Shown here piece by piece: positions 3,173 to 20,347 of a stretch of 64,000 bases of DNA. The notes below the pieces were generated by a model. It saw nothing but the letters and a program-made list of their open reading frames with translations. It did no database searches and was not told the origin of the DNA. Made by a program: the position numbers and the translations under genes. Source of the stretch: Fidelibacterota bacterium (GTDB lineage Bacteria > Fidelibacterota > Marinisomatia > Marinisomatales > UBA1611); contig JBJKZY010000046.1 of NCBI GenBank assembly GCA_045568995.1, forward strand, positions 1,575-65,574, written 5' to 3'. Within the stretch, counting starts at the first letter, position 1; each line of letters begins with the position of its first letter.

Positions 3173-3175
3173 ATC

Positions 3176-3636: not shown

Positions 3637-4449
3637 ATGTCAAAAATCGATAAAAAAAATAGATTTTACTATGACTCCGATTTTCTTGGAAGCACTGGAG
3701 GAAGGTCATTAAGAATTTTATCTGAATATTATGGCCCTATACAGAAGCTGGACAGGAATAATGTATCCGAGACCATTGTCTTCTTTGGCTCTGCTAGAAT
3801 TCCATCTAAAGGAGAAGCAAAAGAAGCTCTTGAAAACCATTCAGATAAAACTGATATTCGAACAATTTCTAAACTAAAAATGGATCTTAAAATGAGTCGT
3901 TACTACGAAGAAGCAAGATCCCTGGCGAACAAATTCACCTCTTGGAGTAAAAACCTCAAAGATAGCAAACATCGTTACATTATTTGCTCTGGAGGAGGTC
4001 CAGGCATTATGGAAGCTGCTAATCGTGGTGCTTCAGAGGCGAATGGAATCAATGTTGGCCTTACCATCTCATTGCCTTTTGAATCTTCAGAAAATGAATG
4101 GATATCCGATGATCTGAATTTAAAATTTCATTACTTTTTCATGCGTAAATTTTGGTTCTTATACTTGGCTAAAGGATTAATTGTATGGCCAGGTGGTTTT
4201 GGAACACTAGATGAACTAATGGAATTATTAACCTTAATTCAAACTCGTAAAATTAAAAAACCTTTACCCATTGTTTTATATGGAAAGGAATTCTGGGAGA
4301 ATGTAGTTAATTGGGACTACCTTGTTGAAGTTGGAACTATATCTCCAGAAGATTTAGACTTATTTCATATTTCTGATGACGTAAATGATACTTTCGATTA
4401 TGTTACTAATTTTATAGAATCCAATGAATTAAAAGGGCCAAACTTTTGA
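3637..4449 (+). CDS. LOG-family / TIGR00730-type nucleotide 5'-monophosphate nucleosidase (lysine-decarboxylase-like)
   Basis: 270 aa; GGGPGIMEAANRGA and PGGFGTLDELMELLT motifs typical of the LOG family. Confidence 0.8.
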   Translation: MSKIDKKNRFYYDSDFLGSTGGRSLRILSEYYGPIQKLDRNNVSETIVFFGSARIPSKGEAKEALENHSDKTDIRTISKLKMDLKMSRYYEEARSLANKFTSWSKNLKDSKHRYIICSGGGPGIMEAANRGASEANGINVGLTISLPFESSENEWISDDLNLKFHYFFMRKFWFLYLAKGLIVWPGGFGTLDELMELLTLIQTRKIKKPLPIVLYGKEFWENVVNWDYLVEVGTISPEDLDLFHISDDVNDTFDYVTNFIESNELKGPNF

Positions 4450-7400
4450 TAAAAAAGATTTACCTACTTGTTTTTTCTCTTTTACTTGCACAGACCGAGC
4501 CTGTAAAGGATATCCGCGTTAATCCTCCGCGGGTGTGGGCACTTACCAATGCCATGATTCACACTGAGCCAGGTGATTCACTAAAAGATGCTACTGTGAT
4601 TATTCGCGATGGCCGAATTGATAAAGTAGGGAGATATATAAAAATTCCTCTGGATGCTTATGAAATTGATCTTGAAGGTGCCCACATATATCCTGGTTTT
4701 ATCGATGGTTGGTACGAAGTCAAAAAAGATGAAAAAATAATAAGCCCTGACGACCACTGGAATAAAAAAATTAGGGCAAACTATCGAGCAAAAGACGATC
4801 TTAAAATAAAAGAAAAGGATTTAAAATCTCTTAGAGCATTAGGTTTAACTGCTATACATATTGTTCCTCAAGAAGGCATTTTCAAAGGTAAATCTGACCT
4901 AGTTATGCTAGATAATGATTTTACATCGTTCAAAAAAGATGTCGCTCAAATTATAGAATTTAAAACAACAGGCTGGTCTGATAGAAGTTATCCAAACTCT
5001 CTTTTAGGTGTTATAGCGGTAATTCGACAAACACTACTGGATGCAAACTGGTATCAAGAATCAATTAAAATTGTTGAAAAATACCCAGAAGGGAACAAGC
5101 TTGTTCCTTTTCACCCTAGCCTAAGTCAACTGGCAGATTTTCAATTAAATAGGAAGCCCCTTCTTTTTATGACAAAAGAAGAACACGGCGCGCTACGCGC
5201 TCTAAAAATTGCGGATGAGTTCAATCTTACTCCGTGGCTTTTAGGAAGCGGATATGAGTACAGAAGAATTAATGAAATCGTAGAGCTCAATCCCTTTATC
5301 GTATTCCCTTTAGAATTTCCCTCGAAACCAAAAGTCAAAGATCCCCATATCGCTCTGCAATACTCTACGGAACAACTAAAGCACTGGGATATGGCTCCAG
5401 ATAATATTAAAAAAGTGTTTGAAAAAGGGATCCGATTTAGTTTCACTTCTGCAACACTAAAAAACAAAAAGGAATTTCGAAAAAATCTTCAAAAAATTAT
5501 TGATCGAGGTTTACCTAAGAGTGTAGCACTTTCTGCACTTACCACTTATCCAGCAGAGGCAATGGGAATCGAAAAAATAATGGGGAAAATCCAGCCTGGT
5601 TACCTTGCCAATTTGGTAGTTACAGACGGTGACTATTTTGACACCAAAAGTAGAGTAACATCTCTTTGGATGAATGGAAAAGAATACTATGTCGCAAATA
5701 AACATAAAACAGTTATAAAGGGAAATTGGGAGCTTGATATATCTGGAAAACTATATGAACTATCATTTAAAACTTCACAAAACAAAAAAGATGATAAAAA
5801 AGTGAACGTCCCTTTAAATAAAAAAGAAAAATTAATAGGAACTATTCAGGATAAAAATTTAATTGCGAACATAAGTGAAATAGAGACCTACGATACTACG
5901 ATTGAATTCAAGGCTGATGGATCCTTTTTGAATCAAGAAGGTATGCTTGCTTTTAAGGGACAGATCAGCAAAGATAAAATAATAGGGAAATTTTTTGATG
6001 GAGGTACTCAACAATCCTTTAAAGCAAAACGAGGAAAAAAAGGCAAAGATAAAAAAAGAACAAAGGAATTAAAAAGCGATACAAAACTCTTTTATCCAGA
6101 AGGCTCTTATGGTGTTGGTAAAGATCTACTTACTCCTAACGCAATTTTAATTGACAATGCTACCATATGGACCTGTGGTCCAAAAGGAGTTCTACAAGAT
6201 TGGGATATACTCTTTGTAAATGGTAAAATTGATAAAATAGCACCTGATATTAGCGTTCCTCTTGGGAGCGCTCTTACCATTGATGGAATGGGTAAACACG
6301 TAACTCCTGGTTTGATTGATTGTCATAGCCACTCCGCTGCATCTTCTATCAATGAGGGAGCACAATCTGTAACAGCAGAAGTAAGAATTCAAGATGTCCT
6401 CTACTCCGATGATATCAATATTTACAGGCAATTAGGTGGAGGATTGACTACAGCAAATATTCTACATGGTTCAGCAAACCCTATTGGTGGGCAAAATGCA
6501 GTTATTAAACTTCGTTGGGGATCTGCTCCTGATAAACTTCTTTTTAAGAATGCTCCTCAAGGCATCAAATTCGCCCTTGGTGAAAATGTAAAGCAAGCTA
6601 ACTGGCAAGGCACAGGAAGGTATCCTCAAACCAGAATGGGGGTGGAGCAAGTAATTAGGGATGCATTCCGTGCAGCACAAGACTATCGTCACACTCAAAA
6701 AACATATGAAAGAAATTCAAAGGCAAAAAAGAAAAATACACCGCCTAGAATAGATCTTGAGTTAGAGGCATTAGCCGAAATACTGGAAGGAAAAAGGCTA
6801 CTTCATTGTCACTCCTATCGCCAAGATGAAATTTGGATGCTCACCAGAATTGCTGAAGATTTTGGATTTACAATTGCAACCTTCCAACATGTTTTAGAGG
6901 GATATAAAGTAGCGGAGAGACTAGCAGAACATGGCGCTGGTGCTTCTACCTTTTCAGACTGGTGGCAATACAAATATGAAGTAATTGATGCTATACCATA
7001 CAACGGAACCATGATGGCAAAAAATAATGTTTTAGTATCTTTCAATAGCGATGACGCCGAGTTAGCACGAAGAATGAATACGGAAGCTGCAAAGGCAATA
7101 AAATATGGTGGACTCGATGAAATCGAGGCTCTCCATTTTGTAACGATCAATCCTGCAAAACAATTAAAAATTGAAAAATGGGTAGGGTCTTTAGAGGAAG
7201 AAAAAGATGCTGATTTTGTTATATGGGATGGCCCTCCTCTGTCCATTTATTCAAAAGTCCAAGAAACATGGATAGATGGCACCAGATATTGGTCAGTGGA
7301 TGAAAATGCCCAGATGGAAGACCGAGACCAGGCTCTCCGTGAAAATTTAATTAAAAAGATCTTGAATTCAACAACGCCTAATACTGGAAAAGATGTAAAA

Positions 7401-7481
7401 CCCAATGGGGAAACTCCGAACCATGGTCACAATTGCGATATAATTGACAGTGATCTTTTTAGTGGAGAATTTCTTCAATGA
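4446..7481 (+). CDS. Secreted two-domain amidohydrolase (degenerate N-terminal domain + catalytic C-terminal domain)
   Basis: 1011 aa; TTG start overlapping the LOG stop; signal peptide MIKKIYLLVFSLLLAQ. The N-domain has PGFIDGWYEV where HxH is expected. The C-domain has PGLIDCHSHSAAS (HxH), LHCHSYRQ, FQHVLEG, SFNSDDAE and a typical C-terminal DADFVIWDGPPL. Confidence 0.85.
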   Translation: MIKKIYLLVFSLLLAQTEPVKDIRVNPPRVWALTNAMIHTEPGDSLKDATVIIRDGRIDKVGRYIKIPLDAYEIDLEGAHIYPGFIDGWYEVKKDEKIISPDDHWNKKIRANYRAKDDLKIKEKDLKSLRALGLTAIHIVPQEGIFKGKSDLVMLDNDFTSFKKDVAQIIEFKTTGWSDRSYPNSLLGVIAVIRQTLLDANWYQESIKIVEKYPEGNKLVPFHPSLSQLADFQLNRKPLLFMTKEEHGALRALKIADEFNLTPWLLGSGYEYRRINEIVELNPFIVFPLEFPSKPKVKDPHIALQYSTEQLKHWDMAPDNIKKVFEKGIRFSFTSATLKNKKEFRKNLQKIIDRGLPKSVALSALTTYPAEAMGIEKIMGKIQPGYLANLVVTDGDYFDTKSRVTSLWMNGKEYYVANKHKTVIKGNWELDISGKLYELSFKTSQNKKDDKKVNVPLNKKEKLIGTIQDKNLIANISEIETYDTTIEFKADGSFLNQEGMLAFKGQISKDKIIGKFFDGGTQQSFKAKRGKKGKDKKRTKELKSDTKLFYPEGSYGVGKDLLTPNAILIDNATIWTCGPKGVLQDWDILFVNGKIDKIAPDISVPLGSALTIDGMGKHVTPGLIDCHSHSAASSINEGAQSVTAEVRIQDVLYSDDINIYRQLGGGLTTANILHGSANPIGGQNAVIKLRWGSAPDKLLFKNAPQGIKFALGENVKQANWQGTGRYPQTRMGVEQVIRDAFRAAQDYRHTQKTYERNSKAKKKNTPPRIDLELEALAEILEGKRLLHCHSYRQDEIWMLTRIAEDFGFTIATFQHVLEGYKVAERLAEHGAGASTFSDWWQYKYEVIDAIPYNGTMMAKNNVLVSFNSDDAELARRMNTEAAKAIKYGGLDEIEALHFVTINPAKQLKIEKWVGSLEEEKDADFVIWDGPPLSIYSKVQETWIDGTRYWSVDENAQMEDRDQALRENLIKKILNSTTPNTGKDVKPNGETPNHGHNCDIIDSDLFSGEFLQ

Positions 7482-8797
7482 AAAAACTGATTATTGCTCT
7501 GATTTTTTCAACAATATATGGGAACAATCAAATCCCTGGCACAGAACAAAAAAGACCAATCTTGCTTCGAGGAGGAACGCTCCATACTGTAACTGGCGAT
7601 GTTCTTGAAGAATATGACCTGCTTTTTGCTGAAGGTAAAATCATTACAATAGACGAACAGATTCAACCTTCACCGGAAACAGATGTACTTGATATTTATG
7701 GGAAACATGTAATCCCTGGTTTTATTGCTGGTTATACAAGAATCGGTCTCACAGAAATATCAGCGGTAAAGCAAACAAATGACCACTCTGAAATAGGTGA
7801 AATCAATCCAAATGTAAGAGCAAACGTAGCTTACAACCCAGACTCCGACTTAATACCAGTTACAAGATCCAATGGCGTATTAACTGTTAATTCAGCACCT
7901 ACCTCTGGAAGAATTGCAGGGCAATCTTCTGTGATGTATATGGATGGATGGACATGGGAAGATGCAACGCTTAAACATCCCAGCGCTTTAAATATAAATT
8001 GGCCATCTATGCGATTTAACTTTAGAAAAGATGCAAAGAAAAAAGAGAAGGAACAGAGAGAAGGATATAATAAAGCTGTCAGAGAGATGAATTTACTAGT
8101 CAGGGATGTTCGAGCCTACCACCATAGGAAAAATGCCAAAGAAAGAAAAGCAGAGCATAAACAAAAATCTGATCTAAGACTAGAATCCATGATCCCATTT
8201 ATAGTTTTCAAAGAACCCATTCACATTAAGGCAAACAATGTTAGACAAATTGAAGCTGCTGTAAAATGGTCTACGAAACATGACCTTAATATTGTAATCG
8301 TTGGCGGAGGAGACGCATGGAGAATATCTGAAATTCTTGTGGAGAAAAATATCCCAGTGATACTACTAGGCGTGCAAAATACACCAAGACGTAGATTTGA
8401 ACCAGTTCATACTCCATATAAAGTTCCTGCAATGCTACAAAAAGCAGGAGTGCATTTTTGTATATCCTTAGATCCTGGCTACCCTATGGATGGACATGTA
8501 AGGACATTACCAGATGAAGCTATGAGAGCAGCTTCATGGGGATTAACAAAAGATCAAGCACTTCGAGCGATCACTCTATCTGCTGCTGAAATACTAGGTG
8601 TTGATGAACAGATTGGATCTTTAGATCTTGGAAAAGATGCTACATTTTTTATTTCCGATAACGAACCTCTAACACAATCAAATCATCCCATTAAAGCTTA
8701 CATTCAAGGAAGAGAAATCGATTTATCAGATCGTCAAAAAAATCTTTGGAACAAATATAAAGAAAAATATAGACGACTAGGAAAACTTTCAGATTAA
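7478..8797 (+). CDS. Secreted amidohydrolase-fold protein lacking the HxH metal motif (probable non-catalytic partner)
   Basis: 439 aa; ATGA overlap with the upstream gene; signal peptide. PGFIAGYTRIG replaces PGxIDxHxH; amidohydrolase-like C-terminus DATFFISDNEPL..IKAYIQGREI. Confidence 0.75.
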   Translation: MKKLIIALIFSTIYGNNQIPGTEQKRPILLRGGTLHTVTGDVLEEYDLLFAEGKIITIDEQIQPSPETDVLDIYGKHVIPGFIAGYTRIGLTEISAVKQTNDHSEIGEINPNVRANVAYNPDSDLIPVTRSNGVLTVNSAPTSGRIAGQSSVMYMDGWTWEDATLKHPSALNINWPSMRFNFRKDAKKKEKEQREGYNKAVREMNLLVRDVRAYHHRKNAKERKAEHKQKSDLRLESMIPFIVFKEPIHIKANNVRQIEAAVKWSTKHDLNIVIVGGGDAWRISEILVEKNIPVILLGVQNTPRRRFEPVHTPYKVPAMLQKAGVHFCISLDPGYPMDGHVRTLPDEAMRAASWGLTKDQALRAITLSAAEILGVDEQIGSLDLGKDATFFISDNEPLTQSNHPIKAYIQGREIDLSDRQKNLWNKYKEKYRRLGKLSD

Positions 8798-8805
8798 TTT
8801 CATTT

Positions 8806-8839
8806 AGAAAACTTATTAAGATTATGCTGATAAGTTTCT
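8806..8839. terminator. Weak hairpin between convergent genes (possible bidirectional terminator)
   Basis: AAACTTAT (8809..8816) pairs with ATAAGTTT (8830..8837), plus 2-3 flanking bp after a 1-nt bulge; 13-nt loop; no clean U-tract. Confidence 0.25.
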
Positions 8840-8843
8840 AGTC

Positions 8844-8861
8844 TTAAAAAGCTATTTTTTG
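8844..8861. repeat. 18-nt exact repeat TTAAAAAGCTATTTTTTG, copy 1 (spans the TAG stop of TetR gene 8852..9451)
   Basis: Identical string at 10035..10052; both copies sit at convergent gene junctions. Confidence 0.9.
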
Positions 8862-9451
8862 GAAATGGTAGGGTCAGTTATAAGTTGATTTAAAAGTTTC
8901 TCAACGTCTTTGTCAGTAACAGGTTCTTCTCGATCCCCCATGAATACTAAACCCATAAAAAGGCCTCCCAGCGCCTTAAACATGTGATTTGGATTCACAT
9001 TGGGAAACTCGCCAGACTTCACACCATCTTCAAGTAAACCTTTTATAACACTATATAATCTCTCTTGATACTCTTTCCATGGCTGATTTTCAATTTTGAC
9101 AACTTTTGGAACATTGAATAAAAATTCAAATAGTCCTGGCCTGTTTTGCGCATTCTCAGCAATCTTTATTAAAACATTTATAAATGTTTTCCTTGGTGAT
9201 TTTTGTTCTCCGATAACGGGCTCAAGAGACTCCCAAATCTTTAACCATCCATCCAATAAAATTGCAGTCAATACATCTTCTTTTGATTTAAAATAATAAT
9301 ATAAAGTTGCCTTTCCAAAACCAGATGCATTTGCAATTTCATCCATAGTAGCGCCATCTATACCATTTTTCTTAAAAACTTGAAGAGCCCCAGATAAAAT
9401 CCGTTCCTTCCTCATTTGTCTTTCTTCTAATTGTCGTTGAGATTGTGGCAT
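8852..9451 (-). CDS. TetR/AcrR-family transcriptional regulator
   Basis: 199 aa; N-terminal HTH GATMDEIANASGFGKATLYYYFKSKEDV. Confidence 0.9.
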   Translation of the reverse strand: MPQSQRQLEERQMRKERILSGALQVFKKNGIDGATMDEIANASGFGKATLYYYFKSKEDVLTAILLDGWLKIWESLEPVIGEQKSPRKTFINVLIKIAENAQNRPGLFEFLFNVPKVVKIENQPWKEYQERLYSVIKGLLEDGVKSGEFPNVNPNHMFKALGGLFMGLVFMGDREEPVTDKDVEKLLNQLITDPTISKK

Positions 9452-9604
9452 TCTAATAAATATTTATCGAATTAATAGTCGAAAATTAGACTACAGAAGA
9501 TTATTTAACAACGTGTTTTGAATTATCTTTTATTGATTTAAACTTATAAATAAGTAGAAAAATCATTTAACTTTCATTTGTAATTATAAACAAGGTATAA
9601 AAAA

Positions 9605-10030
9605 ATGAAAGACGAAAAAGTAGTTACTTCGCTTAATAAAATTTTAGAATTAGAGCTAGCTGGAGTTGTAAAATATACTCACTATGCATTTATGGTACAG
9701 GGACCTTATCGTTTATCCATCGTAGAATGGCTCCGATCACAAGCACAAGAATCTCTTACCCATGCAGAAGCGGTTGGAGAACATATCACTAGTCTAGGTG
9801 AGCATCCTACTTTAAAAATAAGTGATCTTCTAGAAACTCATAAACATTCTACAGAAGATATCCTCAATGAATGCTTAGATCATGAAAGGACAGCAATTAA
9901 AGCTTATTATGAGCTTCTTCATTCAGTTAAAGATAATTCAATTATGTTAGAAGAATTTGCTCGTACACAAATTGCAGCAGAGGAAATGCACGAAGCAGAA
10001 TTGAAAAAAATGCTGAGAGATAACTTTTAA
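9605..10030 (+). CDS. Ferritin-like superfamily protein (bacterioferritin/Dps-like)
   Basis: 141 aa four-helix pattern; N-terminus VVTSLNKILELELAGVVKYTHYA resembles the Bfr N-terminus; C-terminal EEMHEAE (ExxH). The first-half ExxH is not clean, so the subfamily is uncertain. Confidence 0.6.
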   Translation: MKDEKVVTSLNKILELELAGVVKYTHYAFMVQGPYRLSIVEWLRSQAQESLTHAEAVGEHITSLGEHPTLKISDLLETHKHSTEDILNECLDHERTAIKAYYELLHSVKDNSIMLEEFARTQIAAEEMHEAELKKMLRDNF

Positions 10031-10034
10031 AAAA

Positions 10035-10052
10035 TTAAAAAGCTATTTTTTG
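10035..10052. repeat. 18-nt exact repeat TTAAAAAGCTATTTTTTG, copy 2 (spans the TAG stop of 10043..10468)
   Basis: Identical to 8844..8861. Confidence 0.9.
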
Positions 10053-10468
10053 ATTTTATCATAGGTATCCATGGCATTTTTAAAATCTAAAATTTCTAGA
10101 TGCCCATATCCCCGAAAAATAGCCTCAATTTGCATGGATAATCCCGATTGATAGTAATCAACTAGATAATCTAATCTTTTAACACCCTCATCATTTTGGT
10201 TCAGATTATTGGGATCAATTCTACCTATGGATTTTTTTACAGGAAGTAGTTCAATATTATCGAAATTTATAACTGCATCGTAAAACTCTTTATACGCTCT
10301 ATTTATATCACCCTCTTCCTCTCCTATCATTATGTGTAATTGATGATGATATATGCTTAAGAATTCAAATGCTTCTAGCTTCTGCTGAAGCAATGCTCTT
10401 TCATCTATCTTTGGTTTTGTTCCACAAGATGTCAATAATAAAGATAATACCAAACAAGAATACTTCAC
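10043..10468 (-). CDS. Hypothetical lipoprotein, last gene of the heme operon
   Basis: 141 aa; signal plus lipobox LLLTSCG; no recognisable domain. Confidence 0.6.
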   Translation of the reverse strand: MKYSCLVLSLLLTSCGTKPKIDERALLQQKLEAFEFLSIYHHQLHIMIGEEEGDINRAYKEFYDAVINFDNIELLPVKKSIGRIDPNNLNQNDEGVKRLDYLVDYYQSGLSMQIEAIFRGYGHLEILDFKNAMDTYDKIKK

Positions 10469-10499
10469 TACAAAACCATTTTAATGAAATTCAACTTAT

Positions 10500-11489
10500 T
10501 TACAAAGATTCTAAAAGAAACGGAGTAAAATATGATAAAATCCCGTCTGCTCCGGCTCTTTTAAAACAAATTATACTTTCTAAAATTGTATCTTTATTTC
10601 TTTTTTCACCAGCAAGGGATAAAATCATTGAATATTCACCAGAAACCTGGTAGGCAAATGTTGGAATATTAAATTCTTGTTTTGTTCGATAAACTATGTC
10701 TAAATATGGCATCCCAGGTTTTATAATTACCATATCAGCCCCCTCCTTTATGTCCAATGCAATCTCTTGCATAGCCTCATCAGAATTGGCTGAATTCATT
10801 TGGTATGTTTTTTTATCTTTTATTTCATCCAACTTTTGTGCCTTAATAGCATCTCGAAAAGGGCCATAAAATGAAGATGCATACTTTGCTGCATACGACA
10901 TAATTACTGTATCGTGCATTCCATTTTGCTCTAATTCTTTTCGAATAGAACCCACTCTTCCATCCATCATGTCTGAAGGAGCTAAGATATCGCATCCAGC
11001 TTCAGAAAAGACCATAGCTTGTTTTTTTAATACTTCTATAGTTTCATCATTTGCTATTTTACCACCCTTTATAATGCCATCGTGTCCATGTATCGTATAT
11101 GGATCCAAGGCAATATCAGCTATGATACCCAAATCAGGATAAGAAGATTTAATTTCTTTGATTGCTCTGCATACTAAATTATTTTGGTCATAAGAGTTGG
11201 TTCCATTTTCATCCTTTAAATCTTTTTCTATTTGAGGAAATAAAGCCACAGCCTGTAAACCATACTTCACTAAAATTTCCAATTCCTTAATTAGCTTATC
11301 AATTGAATACCGGTACACAAATGGCATTGATTTAATCTTTTGGTTCTGGTTTTCCCCTTCCACCAAAAATACGGGCCAAATTAAATCATTGCAGGATATT
11401 GATGCCTCAGAAACTATATTACGTATAAAAGGTTTCATCCTTAAGCGTCTCATACGAGAAAAAGGGAATTTTTTAATACTATAATTCAT
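10500..11489 (-). CDS. hemB: Porphobilinogen synthase (ALA dehydratase), Asp-rich Zn-independent type
   Basis: FPFSRMRRLRMKPFIRN, DIALDPYTIHGHDG (DxALDxYxxxGHDG instead of the Cys-rich Zn site), active-site Lys region MVIIKPGMPYLDI. I start it at the internal MNYSIKK (11489), because the track start 11531 would overlap hemJ by 32 nt. Confidence 0.9.
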   Translation of the reverse strand: MNYSIKKFPFSRMRRLRMKPFIRNIVSEASISCNDLIWPVFLVEGENQNQKIKSMPFVYRYSIDKLIKELEILVKYGLQAVALFPQIEKDLKDENGTNSYDQNNLVCRAIKEIKSSYPDLGIIADIALDPYTIHGHDGIIKGGKIANDETIEVLKKQAMVFSEAGCDILAPSDMMDGRVGSIRKELEQNGMHDTVIMSYAAKYASSFYGPFRDAIKAQKLDEIKDKKTYQMNSANSDEAMQEIALDIKEGADMVIIKPGMPYLDIVYRTKQEFNIPTFAYQVSGEYSMILSLAGEKRNKDTILESIICFKRAGADGILSYFTPFLLESL

Positions 11490-11499
11490 ATCATTATCC

Positions 11500-11934
11500 T
11501 TAAAAATTGAATTCGGGTTTGATAACAACAAAAAATAAAATTACAAACATGATTAAAAAAGGTATTTCATTTATTAACCTAAAAAACTTGGATGTTTTTT
11601 GATTATCATTTTGAGAAAACTTTACTAAGTATCGTCCAAGGTTGATATGATATAAAGTTAATAATATCACAAGGAAAAATTTTGCTATAAGCCAACCATA
11701 TAAACCTAAGGCATGAGCCATATACAAACCCGAAGCCCAAACAAGCAATGCCGAAGGGTGTCCAATATAGTAGTAAAGTCTCCTCTCCATTAGTTTAAAG
11801 ATATCGGATGTCTCACTAAAGTTTTTTACATTAGCATGATAGACGAAAATTCTAGGTAAGTATAATAAAACAGCCATCCAGGCTACTACAAAAGCAATAT
11901 GAATTATTTTTACCCATAAATAAGTATTACCCAT
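11500..11934 (-). CDS. hemJ: Protoporphyrinogen IX oxidase, HemJ type
   Basis: 144 aa, 4 TM; WVKIIHIAFVVAWMAVLLYLPRIFVYHA matches the HemJ/UPF0093 signature. Confidence 0.8.
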   Translation of the reverse strand: MGNTYLWVKIIHIAFVVAWMAVLLYLPRIFVYHANVKNFSETSDIFKLMERRLYYYIGHPSALLVWASGLYMAHALGLYGWLIAKFFLVILLTLYHINLGRYLVKFSQNDNQKTSKFFRLINEIPFLIMFVILFFVVIKPEFNF

Positions 11935-11937
11935 TAG

Positions 11938-12735
11938 TCATTCCCACTCTGCTAAAGGAGGAAGAGACATTAGAATTGCTTCTGTATTTCCACCTGTCTC
12001 CAATCCAAATTTTGTACCCCTATCATATAATAAATTAAATTCAACATACCTCCCCCTCTTAATTAGCTGACGCTTCCTTTCTTCCTGTGTCCAACTTTTA
12101 TCTTTATTCTTTATTATTATTTGATCTACATATTTATGAAAAAAACTTCCTACATCATGAATAAAATTAAAATCTTTTTCAAAATCATCGTTGTTCAGGT
12201 AATCAAAGAAAATTCCACCAATTCCTCTTGCTTCATTCCTATGTTTAAGAAAAAAATATTCGTCACACCACTTTTTATATTTTGGATAATAAGTACTATC
12301 ATGCCTTTCACACATTTGTTTGAGATTTTCATGAAATTTTTCTGTCTCTAATGTGAAATCAAGGCATGGCGTGATATCCATACCACCACCAAACCAACGC
12401 TTTTGAGTTACTAAGTATCGAGTGTTAAAATGCATAGATGGAACGTTAGGATTTACCGGATGCAACACTACGCTAATGCCTGTAGCCCAATAACTAGGAT
12501 CCTTATCAGCACCTGGAATGCGCTGTTGCATTTTTTCAGAAAATTTTCCTGCAACAGTTGATATGTTCACACCTCCTTTTTCAATAACATTTCCTTTTAT
12601 AACACTCATTGTTCCACCACCTTTCCCAGAGTGTTTCCAACGCTTTACCTTAAACTTAGCGCCATCATGATCTTCTATCATTTGCACTAAATTATTTCTT
12701 AAGCCTTCAAACCAATTTTTTGCTTTATTTCTCAT
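11938..12735 (-). CDS. hemF: Oxygen-dependent coproporphyrinogen III oxidase
   Basis: GGGTMSVIKGNVIEKGGVNIS, HPVNPNVPSMHFNTRY, WFGGGMDITP, RGIGGIFFDY, YVEFNLLYDRGTKFGL. Confidence 0.9.
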   Translation of the reverse strand: MRNKAKNWFEGLRNNLVQMIEDHDGAKFKVKRWKHSGKGGGTMSVIKGNVIEKGGVNISTVAGKFSEKMQQRIPGADKDPSYWATGISVVLHPVNPNVPSMHFNTRYLVTQKRWFGGGMDITPCLDFTLETEKFHENLKQMCERHDSTYYPKYKKWCDEYFFLKHRNEARGIGGIFFDYLNNDDFEKDFNFIHDVGSFFHKYVDQIIIKNKDKSWTQEERKRQLIKRGRYVEFNLLYDRGTKFGLETGGNTEAILMSLPPLAEWE

Positions 12736-13731
12736 TTACCATCCCAAAATATTTTCCTTCACAATAGATTGAAGCATATTTATTTGATCATCATTACTAT
12801 TCAAACAGGGAATATAAACAAGGTCCTCTCCTCCATTTTCTATAAACAATTCTTTATACTGAATTTGAATTTCTTCAAGAGTTTCTAAACAATCCACACT
12901 AAAGCCAGGAGAGATAATATGTAATTTTTTTACACCATTTTTTGCGAATTTTATTATTTCTTCATCAACATATGGCTTTAACCACTCTTCTCTGCCAAAC
13001 CTAGATTGAAAGGCGAGGCGGTATTTTTCTTTATCAATTTTAAGTTCTTCCGCAACTAATCTTGCTGTCTTATGACAAAAGCAATAGTATGGATCACCCT
13101 CTTTCAAATATCTAAAAGGCATACCATGGAAGCTGAAAACTAACATTTCAATTTCTTGCATATCAGGAATGAAAGCAGAAATAGATTTTTGTATAGCCTT
13201 GATATAATCTTCTCTATCATGATAGCCATTTACAAAACGTATATTAGGAACCCAAGGCCACTTATTTAATACGATATTTATTTTATCCAATGTGCTAGAT
13301 GAAGTGGGAGATCCTGCTTGAGGGTACAGAGGAATAATAAGAACTTTCATTATATTATTCTTTTTAAACTTTTCTAATGCATTTTCTATGGAAGGATTGC
13401 CATATCTCATACCCAATTCGATCATTAGGTTTTTTTGATCCATTTCAATTTTTAGTTTCTCCACAATTTCATTCATATATACCATCAACGGAGAGCCCTT
13501 TTCCGTCCATATTTTCTCATAAAGTTTTGCTGACCTTTTTGGTCGTACGTTTAAAATAATTCCATGAAGAATGAGAAACCATAAAACTCTATTATAATCA
13601 ACAACCCTCACATCCGATAAAAATTCTTTGAGGTATTTTCTTAGACTCTTTTTTGTTGGATTATCTGGAGTACCAAGATTGGTAAGCAAAACTCCTATTT
13701 TATTTTGATAATTTGGATCAAAGCCTTCCAT
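12736..13731 (-). CDS. hemH: Ferrochelatase
   Basis: 331 aa; GVLLTNLGTPDNPTKKSLRKYLKEFLSDVRVV N-terminal signature; SFHGMP; abuts hemF with no spacer. Confidence 0.9.
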   Translation of the reverse strand: MEGFDPNYQNKIGVLLTNLGTPDNPTKKSLRKYLKEFLSDVRVVDYNRVLWFLILHGIILNVRPKRSAKLYEKIWTEKGSPLMVYMNEIVEKLKIEMDQKNLMIELGMRYGNPSIENALEKFKKNNIMKVLIIPLYPQAGSPTSSSTLDKINIVLNKWPWVPNIRFVNGYHDREDYIKAIQKSISAFIPDMQEIEMLVFSFHGMPFRYLKEGDPYYCFCHKTARLVAEELKIDKEKYRLAFQSRFGREEWLKPYVDEEIIKFAKNGVKKLHIISPGFSVDCLETLEEIQIQYKELFIENGGEDLVYIPCLNSNDDQINMLQSIVKENILGW

Positions 13732-14761
13732 TTTTCACCTTTGAAAATGTATTCCTAATTTCTCTAACAAAATGTCGAACATTTTTTTCTGGAGTTTTTG
13801 GTAACACGCCATGGCTGAGACTGCAAAGCCATCCCTTTCGATCATTTTTACTTAGTTGCTGCATCCTACTTACAAATTGTTGGTAATCAGGTAGATATTC
13901 TGAGTGCTCTTTTCGCATAGAGTCGGGAGAAAAATTACCTTGGACAAAAAAGGATTTCTCATACTTTAAAAATTCAATGAAACCTTGATTATCTGGATAA
14001 ACAACTCCTGCTAAACCATAACTATTTAAATGCTCAATATTCTGTTCATAAAACTTTTTGTTTTTTGAGAAATAGGCAATTTTTTTCTTGAATTCTAAAA
14101 ATAAATCTGATTTCATTTTTTCCATATAAGTTCCAAGAAAATATTCTTTTTCTAATTGAATACTATTTGTATCGAAAACGTATACTAAATCAGCCCCTTC
14201 ATCGATCTGCATTTGAATATTTTTCCTTAAAATTGGAAACATAATATCATACAATAATTTTTCTATTACGCTATCATGCGTATCAATTTTTATTGAATGT
14301 TCATTCTTCATGTTCATTCCATAAGATAGAACAGTCCAAGGACCTCCAACAAACCCCACAAGACTTTTATTTTTTTCTAAAGATTTCCTTGTTAAATCAA
14401 GGGCTTTGGTTTGAAAATTTAATTTTTCCTCTACCTCATTATCACCTATTTTTAGCTTTATATGTTGCTCAGTCAAATAATTTTCAAAAGTAGGTCCTGG
14501 CTTATAACTTAATTTTAAACCCAATAACTCCAAGGGAAATAATATATCACTAAATAAGATTGCAATATCGTAATCAAAATCAGTCATAGGACCACATGCA
14601 ACCTCTGCCGCAAGCTCAGGAGTTTTGCAAAGTTCCTCAAAAGAATGTCTTTTCCTTAGCTCTTGATAATGTGAATGGTACCTTCCAGCTTGACGCATAA
14701 ACCATATCGGCGGAGTCGATTGCGGTATACCTTTTAGAAGTTTTTCAAATCTTTCATTCAT
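13718..14761 (-). CDS. hemE: Uroporphyrinogen decarboxylase
   Basis: PPIWFMRQAGRYHS signature. Start placed at MNERFEKLL (14761), 2 nt after the hemC stop; the track start 14794 overlaps hemC. Confidence 0.9.
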   Translation of the reverse strand: MNERFEKLLKGIPQSTPPIWFMRQAGRYHSHYQELRKRHSFEELCKTPELAAEVACGPMTDFDYDIAILFSDILFPLELLGLKLSYKPGPTFENYLTEQHIKLKIGDNEVEEKLNFQTKALDLTRKSLEKNKSLVGFVGGPWTVLSYGMNMKNEHSIKIDTHDSVIEKLLYDIMFPILRKNIQMQIDEGADLVYVFDTNSIQLEKEYFLGTYMEKMKSDLFLEFKKKIAYFSKNKKFYEQNIEHLNSYGLAGVVYPDNQGFIEFLKYEKSFFVQGNFSPDSMRKEHSEYLPDYQQFVSRMQQLSKNDRKGWLCSLSHGVLPKTPEKNVRHFVREIRNTFSKVKNGRL

Positions 14762-14763
14762 AA

Positions 14764-16281
14764 CTATTCTCTTTTTTTGTAATAAGATAACCAATGCTTA
14801 TAAGATAGAAAACATTCTATCGCACTAGGATTAGGTAATTTTGTTTTTAAGTAATCAAATGTTTTCCCAAAGCCGCTACTATGCTTTGCATCTAATATTT
14901 CAGGGTAGCGCTCAACTACTACTTCGAATTGAACTGGACTCATCCAATAAAAATATTTTTTTCCTTTAATAGAAAGATTCTCAAGAGCATCTTTATTTAC
15001 TTTTAGTTCATACGTAGGAATTAATTCATAACTATTTGAAGTAGCTTTTGTATGGCTAAGATTAAAACGTAGAATTTGTTCAGAAACAAAGTTCTTAAGA
15101 TCCTTAAGTTCATGATTGCCCATGCTATCACTGGATCCATTGATCCAATACCCTTTTTTTACAGCATAATACCAGCACTTTAATCCACTAGTCCAAAGAT
15201 AGTTACTATCTTTTAATTTATGATTGTTATCTAGAACATTTTTTCTACTTAAGTAAATAAAACTATTTTCTAACATACTTAATTTATCATTATTATCGAC
15301 CTGAACACGTTGAAATAAATTTTTATCACCTTGGAGTGGATAAAGTGATTTTTGTGGTATTTTCTTATAATTTTTATCGAAATCTTGATCAAAAAAATCA
15401 TGCTTATTAATGTCTTCACCCTGTTCTGTTTGCCCTTTCATAGAAAATATAGTTCTTCCATTTTTAGAATAAATGGAGACACCTATCTTTTGCTGACAAC
15501 CCCCACCATATTTACTTAAAATGTTTTTTTCTTTCAGAACATTATCAAAAACAACCTTATTGTTAATTTTATCAACTATATTTTTTAAATCTTTCCGATC
15601 TTTCCTTGCCTCTATTCCAATTGCACCTTGCCCAGGAGCAGTAGGAAATATAGAAAGAGGTAAAATTATCCATTTATTTTTGCTAATGATATTTTTAATG
15701 AACTCAATTGCTTTGCTATCATTGGATTCTAAGATTCTATCAATAGCTACTTTTGCCATTACAATTCCATCTGCGTCTCCTTGAACAAACTTTTTTAATC
15801 TTGTTTCAATATTTCCTCTTACATCTAAAAACGTTAAACGATCGATGTTAAATGGAACAAGTTTTTGCAAGTATATTTCTAGATTATGCTTTCTGCGTGG
15901 GGAAGATGAAAGTATTTGAAAAATTTCTTTCTTTTTATTTTTGATAATATTTTTTTTTACAATTAAGATATCTCTCATATCTCCTCTATTAACAGTACCA
16001 ATAATTTCCGTTTGAGTTGATGGCTCTACCGGAACATCTTTCCAAGAGTGAATCGCAATATCAAATTTTTTATTTATAATTTTATCACTTATGTCCTTCG
16101 TAAAAAGACCAACACTATCAGATTTTGCGATATTGATTTCCATATCCCTATCAGCAATTGTTGTGGTAGTGTGATATTCAATCTCTAATTCTGGATAGCA
16201 ATCTTCCAATTGCTTACCTATAATTTCAGCTTGAATTTTCGCAAGCATACTTGCTCTGGACACAATTTTTATTTTTTCCAA
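14764..16281 (-). CDS. hemC: Hydroxymethylbilane synthase with about 200-aa C-terminal extension (candidate uroporphyrinogen-III synthase domain)
   Basis: The N-terminal ~300 aa are HemC: KIVSRASMLAKIQAE, IHSWKDVP, RGNIETRL, PAPGQGAIGIE, cofactor Cys in GGGCQQKIG. Residues ~300-505 are extra; WMSPVQFEVV and SSGFGKTFDYL loosely resemble the HemD FTSxxAV / IGxxTA motifs. Confidence 0.85.
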   Translation of the reverse strand: MEKIKIVSRASMLAKIQAEIIGKQLEDCYPELEIEYHTTTTIADRDMEINIAKSDSVGLFTKDISDKIINKKFDIAIHSWKDVPVEPSTQTEIIGTVNRGDMRDILIVKKNIIKNKKKEIFQILSSSPRRKHNLEIYLQKLVPFNIDRLTFLDVRGNIETRLKKFVQGDADGIVMAKVAIDRILESNDSKAIEFIKNIISKNKWIILPLSIFPTAPGQGAIGIEARKDRKDLKNIVDKINNKVVFDNVLKEKNILSKYGGGCQQKIGVSIYSKNGRTIFSMKGQTEQGEDINKHDFFDQDFDKNYKKIPQKSLYPLQGDKNLFQRVQVDNNDKLSMLENSFIYLSRKNVLDNNHKLKDSNYLWTSGLKCWYYAVKKGYWINGSSDSMGNHELKDLKNFVSEQILRFNLSHTKATSNSYELIPTYELKVNKDALENLSIKGKKYFYWMSPVQFEVVVERYPEILDAKHSSGFGKTFDYLKTKLPNPSAIECFLSYKHWLSYYKKRE

Positions 16282-16377
16282 GATTTTAATCTTCTATTTG
16301 TTAAAACTGACGATATATTCGTATTTTCGACCGAGGATTCTAATTATATTTTAATTAGATCTAAAACATAAAATACT

Positions 16378-17640
16378 ATGGATTACAAAGAGTTACTTCA
16401 AAAACAGCTAAATCAATTTAGCTCTAAAGGATATAAAAGAACCTTTACATCTATTTATAGATACCAAGAAACATTTCCTTTTACCAAAATTGATTTACCA
16501 AACGAAGAACAGAAAAAAGAAAATATAAATCCCGATACTACTATTTGGTGCTCTAATGACTATCTAAACATGAGCCATAACAAAGAGGTTATCAATAGAA
16601 TGATCCAAGTAATTAAGGAAGTAGGAACAGGATCTGGAGGAACTCGAAATATTTCTGGTACTACGCCCTATCATGATCAACTTGAAAATAAATTAGCTAA
16701 TTTTCATGAACGGGATGCGGCTCTCATTTTTACTTCTGCGTATGTTGCAAATCAGACTACACTAGCAACATTGTGTAAGAGGATTCCAAATATAGAAGTG
16801 TTTTCTGATCAGCTAAACCACGCTTCCCTAATCGAAGGTATTAAAAATTCCAAAGCATCGTGCTCTATCTTTAGGCACAATGATCTAGAACATTTGGAAT
16901 TACTCCTTTCTGAAAAAAATTTAAATCAACCAAAAATTATTGTTTTTGAGTCTTTATATTCCATGGATGGAACGGAAACCAATGTTTCTGAATACGTAAA
17001 ACTTGCAAAAAAATACAATGCCCTCACATATCTTGATGAAGTCCACGCCGTAGGTTTATATGGAAAAGGTGGAAGAGGAGTTGCTTATGAAAATAATGTA
17101 TCAGACCAAATTGATATCATTAATGGAACTCTCGCAAAAGGCTTTGGGCAAATAGGAGGTTATATCGTTGCAGATCAAACTACTATAGATTTCATTAGAT
17201 CCTTTGCTCCTGGTTTTATTTTTACAACATCTATGATGCCTTCTATCGCTGCTGCTGCTTCAAAAAGTATTGAAATAGTAGAAAATCTTGATGAAGAACG
17301 AGATGATATTTTTAACAAAGCAAAGTACTTTAGACAAAAATTAAATCTTTTAGATATACCTTTCATTGATAGTAATAGCCATATAATTCCCATTCTCACC
17401 TATAGTACAAAAAAAGCAAAACTCTTTTCAAAACTTCTCCTAAAACAATTCAATAGTTACATACAGCCTATCTTCTATCCTACTGTACCTGAAGGGTCTG
17501 CTCGTTTAAGAATTACAATTACACCCAAGCATTCGATACAAGATATTGACAACTTAATTGCTGCTTTAAAGCGATTGTTTGATAACGAAAAATCAGAACA
17601 GCATATAAATACTGCAACCAGGCAAAATCAAGTCGCTTAA
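16378..17640 (+). CDS. hemA: 5-aminolevulinate synthase (C4/Shemin pathway)
   Basis: 420 aa; WCSNDYLNMS, GSGGTRNISGT, FTSAYVANQ, NHASLIEGI, FESLYSMDG, DEVHAVGLYG, GTLAKGFG (PLP Lys), GFIFTTS, SHIIPI, QPIFYPTVPEGSARLRITITPKH. This combination distinguishes ALAS from KBL/BioF. Confidence 0.85.
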   Translation: MDYKELLQKQLNQFSSKGYKRTFTSIYRYQETFPFTKIDLPNEEQKKENINPDTTIWCSNDYLNMSHNKEVINRMIQVIKEVGTGSGGTRNISGTTPYHDQLENKLANFHERDAALIFTSAYVANQTTLATLCKRIPNIEVFSDQLNHASLIEGIKNSKASCSIFRHNDLEHLELLLSEKNLNQPKIIVFESLYSMDGTETNVSEYVKLAKKYNALTYLDEVHAVGLYGKGGRGVAYENNVSDQIDIINGTLAKGFGQIGGYIVADQTTIDFIRSFAPGFIFTTSMMPSIAAAASKSIEIVENLDEERDDIFNKAKYFRQKLNLLDIPFIDSNSHIIPILTYSTKKAKLFSKLLLKQFNSYIQPIFYPTVPEGSARLRITITPKHSIQDIDNLIAALKRLFDNEKSEQHINTATRQNQVA

Positions 17641-17929: not shown

Positions 17930-20347
17930 TTAAAAATTAAATATTAAAGAGGAAATGTATTGTCTAGGCATTATTGGCCTAAAACCTGCTGGTCTAGTAG
18001 ATGCAACAGCACTAAGGTTTGTTAAATTATTAATTTTGAAATTTAAAGAAATGTTTTTATTAAATTGATAGTTAGTAACTAAGTCAAATATTTTAAGAGA
18101 GCTTGTACTGTTTGCCATTATAAAATCTCCTTGCCCTGCAACTGTTCGGGTTTTATCAACATACTTAAAACGAACATATGATTTTATATTTTTCTTATTG
18201 ACACCCAATTTTAGGTGTAACATTTTTTTAGGAATATAGGGTAGTTCATCATTTATTTTGACATTTCCCCAAGGATCAAAATCACTGTTAAAATTATTTT
18301 TAAATCTTGCGTCAGTAAACGTGAATGAAAGAGAAGCTGGAAATAGAAAATCATTAATAGAAATTAAATTACTTAGTGATAATTCAATTCCTTGAATCAA
18401 AACCTTACCACCATTAAACTGAGCATAGGTGCCTTCACCTGTTGCATCAGTATCTTCGCCTAATAAGTTCTTATAATTATTATGGAAAAGAACTAATTCT
18501 GACGATTGAAACCCCCTATTATATCTTGCACCTAATTCAAAGTTTACGCTTTCCTCAGGTAATATTTCATCTTCATCATCAATTCCTGGTCCTGGTGGAG
18601 AAAAGCCAGAATGAATACCTGCAAAACCTTGAATCCCATTAGCTAATTGGTATGAAAAAGCTAGACCTGGAATGAAAATATTAAGTGATGCTTTTTTGAT
18701 AGAATTTGCAGTCGAATCTCTATCCAAATCATTCCCCCAATCTTTTCTTTCAAGTGAAATAGTTTCAATTCGTGATCCTGCAGTTATTATAATTTTATCA
18801 TACTGTAATTCATTTTCTACAAAAAAAGATCTTGCATTAGCTGAGTATAATCTATTGTTTTTACTTCCTTCACCTTTGATTCCTGGTGATGTGATAAATA
18901 ATTCTCCACCTTGCATTTTATAGAGATCAGACCACTGAAATCGATCCATTTTATCTAAATGCTGCCTTACTCCAATCATCAGATTGTGGTTTGTTTTTAA
19001 AAAAGAAAAATTTGATCTCAAAATAGATTGAATTCCTCTTGAGTTATATTGTCTATTATTTGCTTTAATATTGTATTCATCATCATTTGAATTTAGAGCA
19101 GATAATAAATTGTATGCATATTCTGTACCTTCATCTTGATTAAGAATGGATCCTATTTTTTTTCCATTTACGGTGTTTAGCTTATACCAATTTCGGTGAA
19201 AATTATTGTTATATAATGTTGTTGTTATGTCAAAATTTGAGTTGAAACTAATGGCAGATGTAAGAGTAATTTGGTCATGATTTGCATTCATTTGATCATT
19301 TTTTGAGGCAAGATATCTCCTATATGGATTCTCATTATAATCATCAAAAGTTAAACCTAAATAAGTTTCATTACTTAATTCTTCAGTTTGACTAACCTTC
19401 AGTTCTAATGCAGCATTATTAGAACTAGTATTAATTCGGGTTTTAAGTAAAAAATCTTTTTTATCATAGCCCGTATTACCACCTAAATCTAATTCCTTAA
19501 ATCCTTCTGCATTATCCAAATGACTCTGAACCATTAATCCAAAATTTTTAGAAGAAACTCCGGTCTTAAATTTTGCAAGTTTTTTATTTTGATCACCGTA
19601 TGAAATAGTTCCTTTAAAATCTAATTTTTGTGGGATTGTAGCCGAAACATAGTTAATGGACCCCCCTGTAGAATGAGGTCCATATTTAATTTGTGATGAT
19701 CCTTTTCTTATTTCAAAGGACTCCATCCTGCCTGCAGTTGGGGAATAATATGCCGCTGGGGAAGAATAAGGTGCAGGAGCAATCAATATACCATCTTCCA
19801 TTAAATTAATTTTAGCACTTCTTTCTAGACCTGTTCCTCTCATGCCAATATTTGGTCTAAGACCATATCCATCCTCCTCTTGCGTATAAACTCCAGGAAT
19901 CTGAGAAACCACACGATTAATATCAGTGTCATTAAACTCCAGTACTTCTTTTTTTGAAATAAGACCTATAGATCCAGGTAACCTGTAATAGTTTTGCCCA
20001 AAACCTGAGATCCTAGATCTTTCAGCAATCACATCAATGGGAGAGAATTCAACGGTATTCTGTTCTAATTCAAACATCGTTAGATCGGTATTGTAATTAC
20101 TATTAAAAACTTCAAGTTTATCATAGCCTACTGCGGTAATTCTTAAGGATACTATTTCTGAAGTAAGTAATCTAAGGGAGAATATACCATTTTCATCGGA
20201 AGTTGTGCCTTCATTAGAATGTCCAATTAATTCAATATTCGCTTCAATAATAGGCATCCCCGATTTGGAGTCAATTACTTTTCCAAGAAAAGTGTTTGCT
20301 AAGGAAGGACTAATAATGATAAAAGTACTTATTATAAAATTTTTCAT
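17930..20347 (-). CDS. TonB-dependent outer-membrane receptor with CarboxypepD_reg-like N-domain
   Basis: 805 aa; signal peptide; N-domain GKVIDSKSGMPIIEANIELIG..TSDENGIFSL; plug region; beta-barrel repeats; terminal ..LIFNF. Confidence 0.9.
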   Translation of the reverse strand: MKNFIISTFIIISPSLANTFLGKVIDSKSGMPIIEANIELIGHSNEGTTSDENGIFSLRLLTSEIVSLRITAVGYDKLEVFNSNYNTDLTMFELEQNTVEFSPIDVIAERSRISGFGQNYYRLPGSIGLISKKEVLEFNDTDINRVVSQIPGVYTQEEDGYGLRPNIGMRGTGLERSAKINLMEDGILIAPAPYSSPAAYYSPTAGRMESFEIRKGSSQIKYGPHSTGGSINYVSATIPQKLDFKGTISYGDQNKKLAKFKTGVSSKNFGLMVQSHLDNAEGFKELDLGGNTGYDKKDFLLKTRINTSSNNAALELKVSQTEELSNETYLGLTFDDYNENPYRRYLASKNDQMNANHDQITLTSAISFNSNFDITTTLYNNNFHRNWYKLNTVNGKKIGSILNQDEGTEYAYNLLSALNSNDDEYNIKANNRQYNSRGIQSILRSNFSFLKTNHNLMIGVRQHLDKMDRFQWSDLYKMQGGELFITSPGIKGEGSKNNRLYSANARSFFVENELQYDKIIITAGSRIETISLERKDWGNDLDRDSTANSIKKASLNIFIPGLAFSYQLANGIQGFAGIHSGFSPPGPGIDDEDEILPEESVNFELGARYNRGFQSSELVLFHNNYKNLLGEDTDATGEGTYAQFNGGKVLIQGIELSLSNLISINDFLFPASLSFTFTDARFKNNFNSDFDPWGNVKINDELPYIPKKMLHLKLGVNKKNIKSYVRFKYVDKTRTVAGQGDFIMANSTSSLKIFDLVTNYQFNKNISLNFKINNLTNLSAVASTRPAGFRPIMPRQYISSLIFNF

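Follow-up and report, generated by a model that had tools for sequence, protein, structure and literature searches.

Reviews assign 5-aminolevulinate synthase (ALAS) to Alphaproteobacteria and mitochondria. Among bacteria, the enzyme has been stated to occur in Alphaproteobacteria only, and phage-borne ALAS genes have been described from aquatic viromes (PMC11480375). For SAR406 (Marinimicrobia), heme auxotrophy was predicted and read as repeated loss, in a study whose main text makes no mention of ALAS (Kim et al. 2021, bioRxiv 10.1101/2021.01.11.426183). Here we describe a heme cluster headed by an ALAS gene at positions 10500-17640 of a 64,000-nucleotide stretch (the window) of contig JBJKZY010000046.1 from a Fidelibacterota bacterium (assembly GCA_045568995.1). 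With a probability of roughly three in four, we read it as a self-contained, oxygen-dependent and protoporphyrin-dependent heme locus of SAR406 that starts from glycine and succinyl-CoA (Shemin or C4 entry), and as an old replacement of a set of the C5 type, in which 5-aminolevulinate (ALA) is made from glutamyl-tRNA, with gain and loss inside the order. All enzymes are of known kinds; unusual are the host, the packaging, a cryptic fused HemD, and the switching between full, relic and empty states. No published description of an ALAS heme cluster in SAR406 was found in limited literature searches.

With the alphaproteobacterial enzymes (HemA/HemT/AlaS; structure 2BWN), the ALAS of the window shares the fold family, a length of about 400 residues and the catalytic residues. 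It differs in its host, SAR406, in its sequence, which shares no more than 51% identity with any other ALAS and falls into a separate deep clade, and in its setting at the head of a complete heme operon. The ALAS contexts L130, L135 and L136, which we take to be alphaproteobacterial-looking by gene content only, have no more than one further hem gene within 9 kb of ALAS.

Gene content of the cluster

Genes were called from an open reading frame (ORF) map and two profile libraries (Pfam and NCBIfam), with the coordinates given in Table 1. ALAS, on the plus strand, diverges from the tightly packed minus-strand genes hemC/D-hemE-hemH-hemF-hemJ-hemB. An earlier note, made from the letters of the window, had named these genes, and all were found where it had placed them; the order in which it listed them does not hold, the minus-strand genes running CD-E-H-F-J-B.

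The ALAS product scored above the TIGR01821 cut-off and below those of BioF (336.5 against 426), KBL (305 against 460) and SPT (245 against 640). Its nearest solved relative is Rhodobacter capsulatus ALAS (2BWN), with an E-value of 6e-109 and an end-to-end alignment, in which the pyridoxal phosphate (PLP) lysine, the Gly-rich GTGSGGTRNISG loop and R21, N60, H148, D220, H223, K254 and R378 are kept. The catalytic residues are invariant across 16 diverse ALAS sequences; by the 2BWN structure, they include the Asp and His that hold PLP, and the Arg and Thr that bind the carboxylates of glycine and succinyl-CoA. The earlier note had named a KBL- or BioF-type product as the outcome that would overturn its reading, and the gene scores as neither, with the catalytic residues of the R. 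capsulatus enzyme kept. The protein would be expected to condense glycine and succinyl-CoA to ALA.

HemB, whose nearest solved relative is the enzyme of Pseudomonas aeruginosa (1B4K), reads DIALDPYTIHGHDG at the aligned metal site, with the Asp-rich pattern D-x-A-L-D-x-Y-x3-G-H-D-G in place of the Cys-rich zinc site, as the earlier note had proposed. Its true start is probably Met15, giving a product of 329 residues, and that of HemE probably Met12, giving 347 residues. HemE matched the Pfam URO-D family with 211 bits but stayed below the cut-off of TIGR01464 (210 against 303), and HemJ likewise passed Pfam but not TIGR00701 (123.7 against 138). The HemE motifs PPIWFMRQAGR and ILFSDIL and the HemH motifs FHGMP...GDPY and DCLETLEE are intact, as are the family motifs of HemJ. 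HemF had been called oxygen-dependent, an assignment borne out by its NF003727 score (Table 1) and by its PDB matches, all of which are oxygen-dependent coproporphyrinogen oxidases (210-232 bits). By profile matches, HemE, HemF, HemJ and HemH of the protoporphyrin-dependent route are all present and contiguous.

Read from the sequences, the pathway would run as follows. ALAS would provide ALA by the C4 entry, and the Asp-rich HemB would turn ALA into porphobilinogen. The fused HemC-HemD would make hydroxymethylbilane and close it to uroporphyrinogen III, from which HemE would form coproporphyrinogen III, HemF, with a requirement for O2, protoporphyrinogen IX, and HemJ protoporphyrin IX, before HemH inserts the iron. 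The two transcription units would diverge from a 96-bp spacer with an element common to three families. These activities are those expected of the respective families.

Table 1. Features of the heme locus and its flanks, in coordinates of the window.
Feature	Position	Strand	Evidence
TetR-family regulator (flank)	8852..9451	-	PF00440 58.4 bits
Ferritin-like protein (flank)	9605..10030	+	PF00210 82.8 bits
Lipoprotein, 141 aa, lipobox LTSC	10043..10468	-	no Pfam or NCBIfam match
hemB, porphobilinogen synthase, Asp-rich (zinc-independent) type	10500..11531	-	NF006762 451 bits (cut-off 297)
hemJ-family protoporphyrinogen oxidase, 144 aa, membrane protein	11500..11934	-	PF03653 161.5 bits
hemF, oxygen-dependent coproporphyrinogen oxidase	11938..12735	-	PF01218 333.9 bits; NF003727 373.8 (cut-off 297)
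hemH, protoporphyrin ferrochelatase	12736..13731	-	PF00762 355.6 bits; TIGR00109 294.5 (cut-off 124.6)
hemE, uroporphyrinogen decarboxylase	13718..14794	-	PF01208 211 bits
Fused hemC with extension	14764..16281	-	TIGR00212 186.7 (cut-off 164)
Cryptic hemD-like C-terminal domain, residues 285-505, probable uroporphyrinogen-III synthase	14764..15429	-	predicted fold
hemC part, residues 1-284, hydroxymethylbilane synthase	15430..16281	-	PF01379 156.9 bits
Divergent spacer between hemCD and ALAS, 96 bp	16282..16377	.	conserved element 16318-16343, TTCGTATTTTCGACCGAGGATTCTAA
ALAS, 5-aminolevulinate synthase, 420 aa	16378..17640	+	TIGR01821 507.5 bits (cut-off 338.55)
TonB-dependent receptor, N-terminal CarboxypepD_reg domain (flank)	17930..20347	-	Pfam Plug, beta-barrel, CarbopepD_reg_2

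The HemC extension and the fourth step

In the HemC part, the sequence shows the motifs SRxSxLA and HSWKDVP and, in GGGCQQKIG, the cofactor Cys. The 220-residue extension had no match to Pfam HEM4 (PF02602) even at E<=10, no sequence match in the PDB (phmmer), and no match to the HemD of a C5-type relative (hhalign, probability below 1%). An AlphaFold2 model of the extension, built on 22 homologues, reached a mean predicted local distance difference test (pLDDT) score of 83 and has the two-domain alpha/beta fold of uroporphyrinogen-III synthase. When searched against the PDB with Foldseek, all ten significant matches were uroporphyrinogen-III synthases, from Thermus, Shewanella, Pseudomonas and human (E 2e-5 to 7e-4, probability 1.0, about 205-220 aligned columns, template modelling (TM) scores 0.36-0.52); the Helicobacter enzyme ranked 15th, below the significance cut-off. 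A HemC-HemD fusion of 483-521 residues is found in every ALAS-type cluster examined. In 400 genomes of the phylum of locus L020, Pseudomonadota, no fused HemC-HemD was found, only ordinary HemC of 304-331 residues. The candidate HemD domain suspected by the earlier note thus lacks any sequence match, yet its predicted fold matches uroporphyrinogen-III synthases only, and at the level of the fold the extension is probably a cryptic HemD.

If the extension had another function, the pathway of the cluster would be incomplete, with hemD in the unassembled part of the genome or missing altogether. The lack of sequence-level similarity to any HemD, TM-scores of just 0.36-0.52 and a genome that is 52% complete would fit such a gap. 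We nevertheless regard it as very unlikely, as ten out of ten significant structural matches, over about 205-220 columns, are to this one enzyme, as the extension is kept throughout the ALAS-type clusters and also in L131, an unrelated cluster, and as a tblastn search of the genome with the HemD proteins of relatives found no separate hemD-like gene. Uroporphyrinogen-III synthase is a hinged two-domain protein, which lowers global TM-scores. In surveys of pathway completeness based on Pfam or KEGG, genomes with the cryptic HemD will be scored as lacking step 4.

Distribution of the two entry routes

The genome that holds the window is a 1.56-Mb metagenome-assembled bin. The same cluster is found on contig NZIX01000091 of Candidatus Neomarinimicrobiota MED586, with most proteins 98-100% identical; this near-identical copy places the host in Marinimicrobia/SAR406, in keeping with the doubt of the earlier note about an alphaproteobacterial host. 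That doubt was built in part on sorting domains of type IX secretion system (T9SS) type. The host belongs to SAR406 and not to Bacteroidota; T9SS-type domains are common to the whole FCB group.

For the distribution of the two entry routes, an even sample of 401 genomes of the phylum was used, with ALAS counted above the cut-off. ALAS was found in 17 genomes from 8 genera, all in the families f1, f8 and f9 of the window's order, and glutamyl-tRNA reductase in 52 genomes from 31 genera, both within the order and elsewhere in the class and the phylum. The two never occur together (0/401), and 332 genomes hold neither; genera of the C5 type and of the ALAS type are both represented in family f8, and likewise in f9. 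Among the 41 nearest relatives of the window's genome, HemB is restricted to the 8 genomes with ALAS and the 3 with glutamyl-tRNA reductase and occurs in all of these, heme-copper oxidase subunit I is present in 34, and ferrochelatase in 16, 6 of which have no other pathway gene. As most relatives that lack the pathway encode a heme-copper oxidase, they must import heme.

The window's own genome contains one ALAS and no glutamyl-tRNA reductase, which answers the check for the C5 route proposed in the earlier note, and a tblastn search for second copies of hem genes, also proposed there, found none in it. The only HemL-like gene (G000 contig C28, 8845-10170) passed the model of GntE, a guanitoxin transaminase, with 534.6 bits against a cut-off of 525, and lies below the HemL cut-off. 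Apart from this, the last 120 bases of G000 contig C12 (L030:4010-4127) hold a 40-codon 3' fragment of a second hemB with upstream stop codons, 56-59% identical to both ALAS-type (G007) and C5-type (G026) HemB; the fragment may be left over from an older heme cluster, or the contig may be a stray one. In part of a non-alphaproteobacterial phylum, the C4 entry appears to be the only way into heme synthesis.

That the cluster is an artefact, through a contaminant contig mis-binned into a SAR406 genome or an ALAS-like gene that is really of KBL/BioF type, might be argued from the incompleteness of the bin, and from a relative's bin (G368) that also holds a second ALAS, of the ordinary type, on a 335-kb contig. 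The same cluster with the same flanks recurs in 17 independent bins of three families, these flanks are shared with relatives that lack the cluster, and the model scores and active-site residues of ALAS are as expected, so that an artefact of either kind seems next to impossible.

In terms of the auxotrophy described by Kim et al. 2021, our counts agree, with 332 of the 401 genomes lacking either ALA route and most relatives encoding a heme-copper oxidase. They differ in that the prototrophs of this family use an ALAS-type cassette, in that a lone hemH often remains at this site in auxotrophs, and in that one case, described below, looks like a regain.

Age and origin of the cluster

For comparison with the C5 route, we used the C5-type supercluster of a sister family (G026), which reads TetR-gtrR-hemC-hemD-hemE-hemF-hemN-hemH-hemY-hemB-hemL. 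Both systems make heme, both pack the whole pathway into one locus, and a TetR gene is adjacent in both; the homologue directly upstream of the C5-type cluster is 53-54% identical to the window's. In the C5-type cluster, ALA is made from glutamyl-tRNA, hemC and hemD are separate genes, HemY takes the place of HemJ, and there is an additional HemN. Identities to the proteins of the window are 43% for HemB, 49% for HemF, 30% for HemE, 29% for HemC and 23% for HemH. As all enzymes diverge from the C5-type cluster of the sister families, the replacement would have concerned the whole pathway and not just its first step. As glutamyl-tRNA reductase is spread over all classes and ALAS is confined to three families, the C5 route is likely to be ancestral in the phylum. 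The ALAS-type set would then be an old replacement of the entire C5-type pathway, a reading that includes the direction and the age of the acquisition.

Among 1.84 billion representative proteins, the best ALAS match outside SAR406 was at most 51% identical, and many of the best matches were of eukaryotic length. In a tree of 80 sequences, a single clade with support 100 unites the SAR406 ALAS, and it lies outside another clade that holds 60 further ALAS sequences. The cluster genes have a G+C content at third codon positions (GC3) of 0.21-0.28, compared with 0.238 +/- 0.032 for the genome, and their overall GC content likewise lies inside the genome's range. With low identity to outside sequences, a deep clade and native composition, we conclude that the replacement is old.

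For an enzyme typical of alphaproteobacteria and eukaryotes, and present on phages in aquatic viromes (PMC11480375), recent horizontal transfer from one of these three sources would be a natural thought, and viral contigs yielded more than 566 ALAS genes. All of these are at most 48% identical to the window's gene, and none of 80 examined lies beside other hem genes; a phage vector was rejected on these grounds. Recent transfer from a distant source was rejected as well, as the GC and GC3 of every cluster gene lie inside the genome's range; the compositional comparison suggested in the earlier note, by codon usage and GC3, showed no foreign signal. With at most 51% identity to any ALAS outside SAR406 and a deep, monophyletic SAR406 clade in addition, we consider recent transfer highly improbable. 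Besides the viral copies, a contig from JGI 3300041085 (L146) carries a very AT-rich ALAS at 2189-3397 amid small unannotated ORFs and a gene for a 1428-residue protein; it looks phage-like, in line with the published viral ALAS genes.

ALAS is less rare outside Alphaproteobacteria than the earlier note had assumed. One ALAS representative is annotated as from a Saprospiraceae genome, another lies inside a sulfite-reductase/siroheme operon, and a third locus, L131, reads hemH | ALAS-hemC(508 aa)-hemB-hemE-hemN-hemY. The HemC of L131 aligns with that of the window over its full length, extension included. Identities are low (ALAS 47%, HemCD 29%, HemH 28%), the terminal oxidases differ, and the ALAS tree shows no specific sister relationship between the two. 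It is conceivable, though we hold it as doubtful, that an ALAS-headed cluster with a fused HemC-HemD is a portable, cross-phylum cassette for heme self-sufficiency among streamlined marine bacterioplankton (SAR406 and the low-GC lineage of L131), which has repeatedly restored prototrophy and whose origin predates or lies outside Alphaproteobacteria. Separately, the second ALAS of bin G368 (L033, G368:C57, 8829-10007) shares 46% identity with the window's and falls among ordinary ALAS representatives; its contig is probably a contaminant of another lineage.

Layouts, relics and recombination

The cluster occurs in three layouts. In layout A, found in the window's genus, g4 and g12, hemB-J-F-H-E-CD lie on one strand and ALAS on the other; in layout B (g14 of f1 and g51 of f8), hemB-ALAS lie on one strand and CD-E-H-F-J on the other, so that layout A corresponds to layout B with the block from ALAS to hemJ inverted. 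Layout C (f9) reads ALAS | CD-hemB'-E-H-F-J, with a Cys-rich hemB' product (DLCLCSFTITGHCC) that is 32% identical to the window's HemB. Genomes of the family that lack the cluster read TetR-ferritin-lipoprotein-hemH-(TonB receptor) at the same site, with hemH in the orientation of layout B. In the HemH tree, the clade of these lone proteins nests among the ALAS-type HemH, the window's included, and lies very far from the C5-type HemH; the lone hemH genes are therefore relics of a decayed ALAS-type cluster.

One bin, G007, holds both alleles, contig C44 (L048) with hemH only and contig C29 (L022) with a layout A cluster. Their right flanks are 99.1% identical over 3.9 kb and their left flanks 83.6%, and the cluster and left flank of C29 are 97% identical to G301. 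Past ALAS, C29 continues with about 120 bp of G301-type tail sequence, within which begin the last 94 codons of the resident hemH (L022 12108-12493), whose protein sequence is 100% identical to that of C44. Exact microhomology at this joint amounts to about 8 bp only, too short for a k-mer chimera. The cluster of C29 was apparently imported by way of homology in one flank and an illegitimate joint at the opposite end, which would amount to a regain of the pathway. No hemH remnant was found downstream of ALAS in the window.

The window and MED586 (L019) can be compared over 14 kb. They are about 100% identical at 7676-14800 and 97-100% after 17876, and 85-94% identical across hemCD, the spacer and ALAS (14876-17576). 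This 2.8-kb divergent patch is either a recombination patch or a hypervariable population allele. In the MED586 bin (G008), contig C32 is the one almost identical to the window, and C36 carries the bin's own TetR-ferritin locus, which lacks the cluster; the bin is assigned to another genus.

Strictly vertical inheritance, with the cluster present once in the ancestor of f1, f8 and f9, many independent losses and no transfer inside the order, would explain why f1 and f9 share one neighbourhood (amidohydrolase pair, TetR, ferritin, lipoprotein, TonB receptor), and agrees with the native composition and with lone hemH genes that are clearly products of decay. It does not account for the layout A cluster of G007 C29, 97% identical to G301 and joined to a truncated resident hemH that matches the hemH-only allele of the same bin. 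Nor does it easily accommodate an ALAS tree in which an f1 genus groups with an f8 genus, the presence of both C5-type and ALAS-type genera in f8 and in f9, or a divergent hemCD-ALAS patch in an otherwise identical stretch. We therefore consider inheritance without any transfer unlikely, and prefer an old ALAS-type replacement that would have given rise to the three layouts, followed by repeated reduction to a lone hemH or to nothing and by at least one return through recombination into a hemH-only genome. Of the two alternatives offered in the earlier note, a laterally acquired cassette and a lineage-specific replacement of the C5 route, both would be right in part, as the whole enzyme set appears to have been replaced and the cassette lost and regained within the order.

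Several points weigh against this preferred reading. The genome is 52% complete, so that the absence of the C5 route in it rests on the relatives, and bins are population composites. HemD is assigned from a predicted fold with modest TM-scores (0.36-0.52), and HemE and HemJ lie below the NCBIfam equivalog cut-offs. No donor lineage was found among the 1.84 billion representative proteins or in the ALAS tree. G008:C32 is probably mis-binned from the window's own genus, and what separates loss alone from transfer is mainly the single G007 joint, together with tree incongruence of moderate support.

No integrase or transposase was found among the ORFs in and beside the cluster that were run through Pfam, a search not aimed specifically at mobility genes, at repeats along the borders or at tRNA sites. 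The cluster occupies one conserved chromosomal site and does not have the character of a mobile genomic island.

Spacer and flanking genes

Between hemCD and ALAS, an element of the form TA(A/T)TTTCGAC-N4-6-G(A/T)(G/T)TCTAA is kept in all three families that carry the cluster, and may be a promoter or operator. The spacer had no Rfam match, and a sigma-70 promoter scan performed no better than on shuffled sequence. A regular expression for the commoner variant (AGTC arm), which does not match the GATTC variant of the window, gave no regulon-like matches in the window's genome and the hemH-only loci.

The ferritin-like gene, TetR regulator and TonB receptor named as flanks in the earlier note are as it described them, by Pfam. 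The lipoprotein that it placed at the end of the hem genes is present and matches no family; it is a conserved flank and not part of the pathway, being kept in relatives without the cluster, where it adjoins the ferritin gene. Its 829 homologues are all unnamed, and its model, a helical bundle (pLDDT 77), had no fold match in the PDB. The ferritin-like gene is syntenic in relatives with and without the cluster, and TetR orthologues that are 73-100% identical lie at the same locus across the family. The nearest solved relative of the TonB-dependent receptor is FecA; in G007, this receptor lies next to the full cluster as well as next to the hemH-only allele.

In species of the same genus, genes for a flavodoxin, an AhpC-type peroxiredoxin and a CMD-family protein and a 100-residue ORF lie variably between hemB and the lipoprotein gene (L021 5685-7917, L023 14747-15864). 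The flavodoxin, AhpC and CMD-family insertions suggest that the hem neighbourhood may be an iron and oxidative-stress region. On the plus strand of the window, 4446-8797 encodes a 1011-residue tandem amidohydrolase (4446-7481) and a 439-residue amidohydrolase, which keep synteny with the TetR-ferritin locus throughout the family and also adjoin the cluster in family f9. On the minus strand, 7 kb from the cluster, 2084-3172 encodes a heme-dependent enzyme, tryptophan 2,3-dioxygenase (Pfam 360 bits); the gene shares an operon with one for a short-chain dehydrogenase.

Significance for heme supply in SAR406

ALAS is the apparent only entry into heme synthesis in part of an abundant ocean phylum, against the statement that bacterial ALAS is restricted to Alphaproteobacteria (PMC11480375). 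In this family, prototrophy comes down to one 7.6-kb locus, which some members of a genus can have and others lack, and auxotrophs often keep just the ferrochelatase at the same site, beside an iron-type receptor and the ferritin-like gene. Carriers of the cluster could make their own heme where respiring members of the lineage mostly must import it, which makes heme a testable 'public good' in the plankton, made by some cells and taken up by others. The reading predicts which SAR406 lineages should not need added heme for growth, and for which protoporphyrin might be enough.

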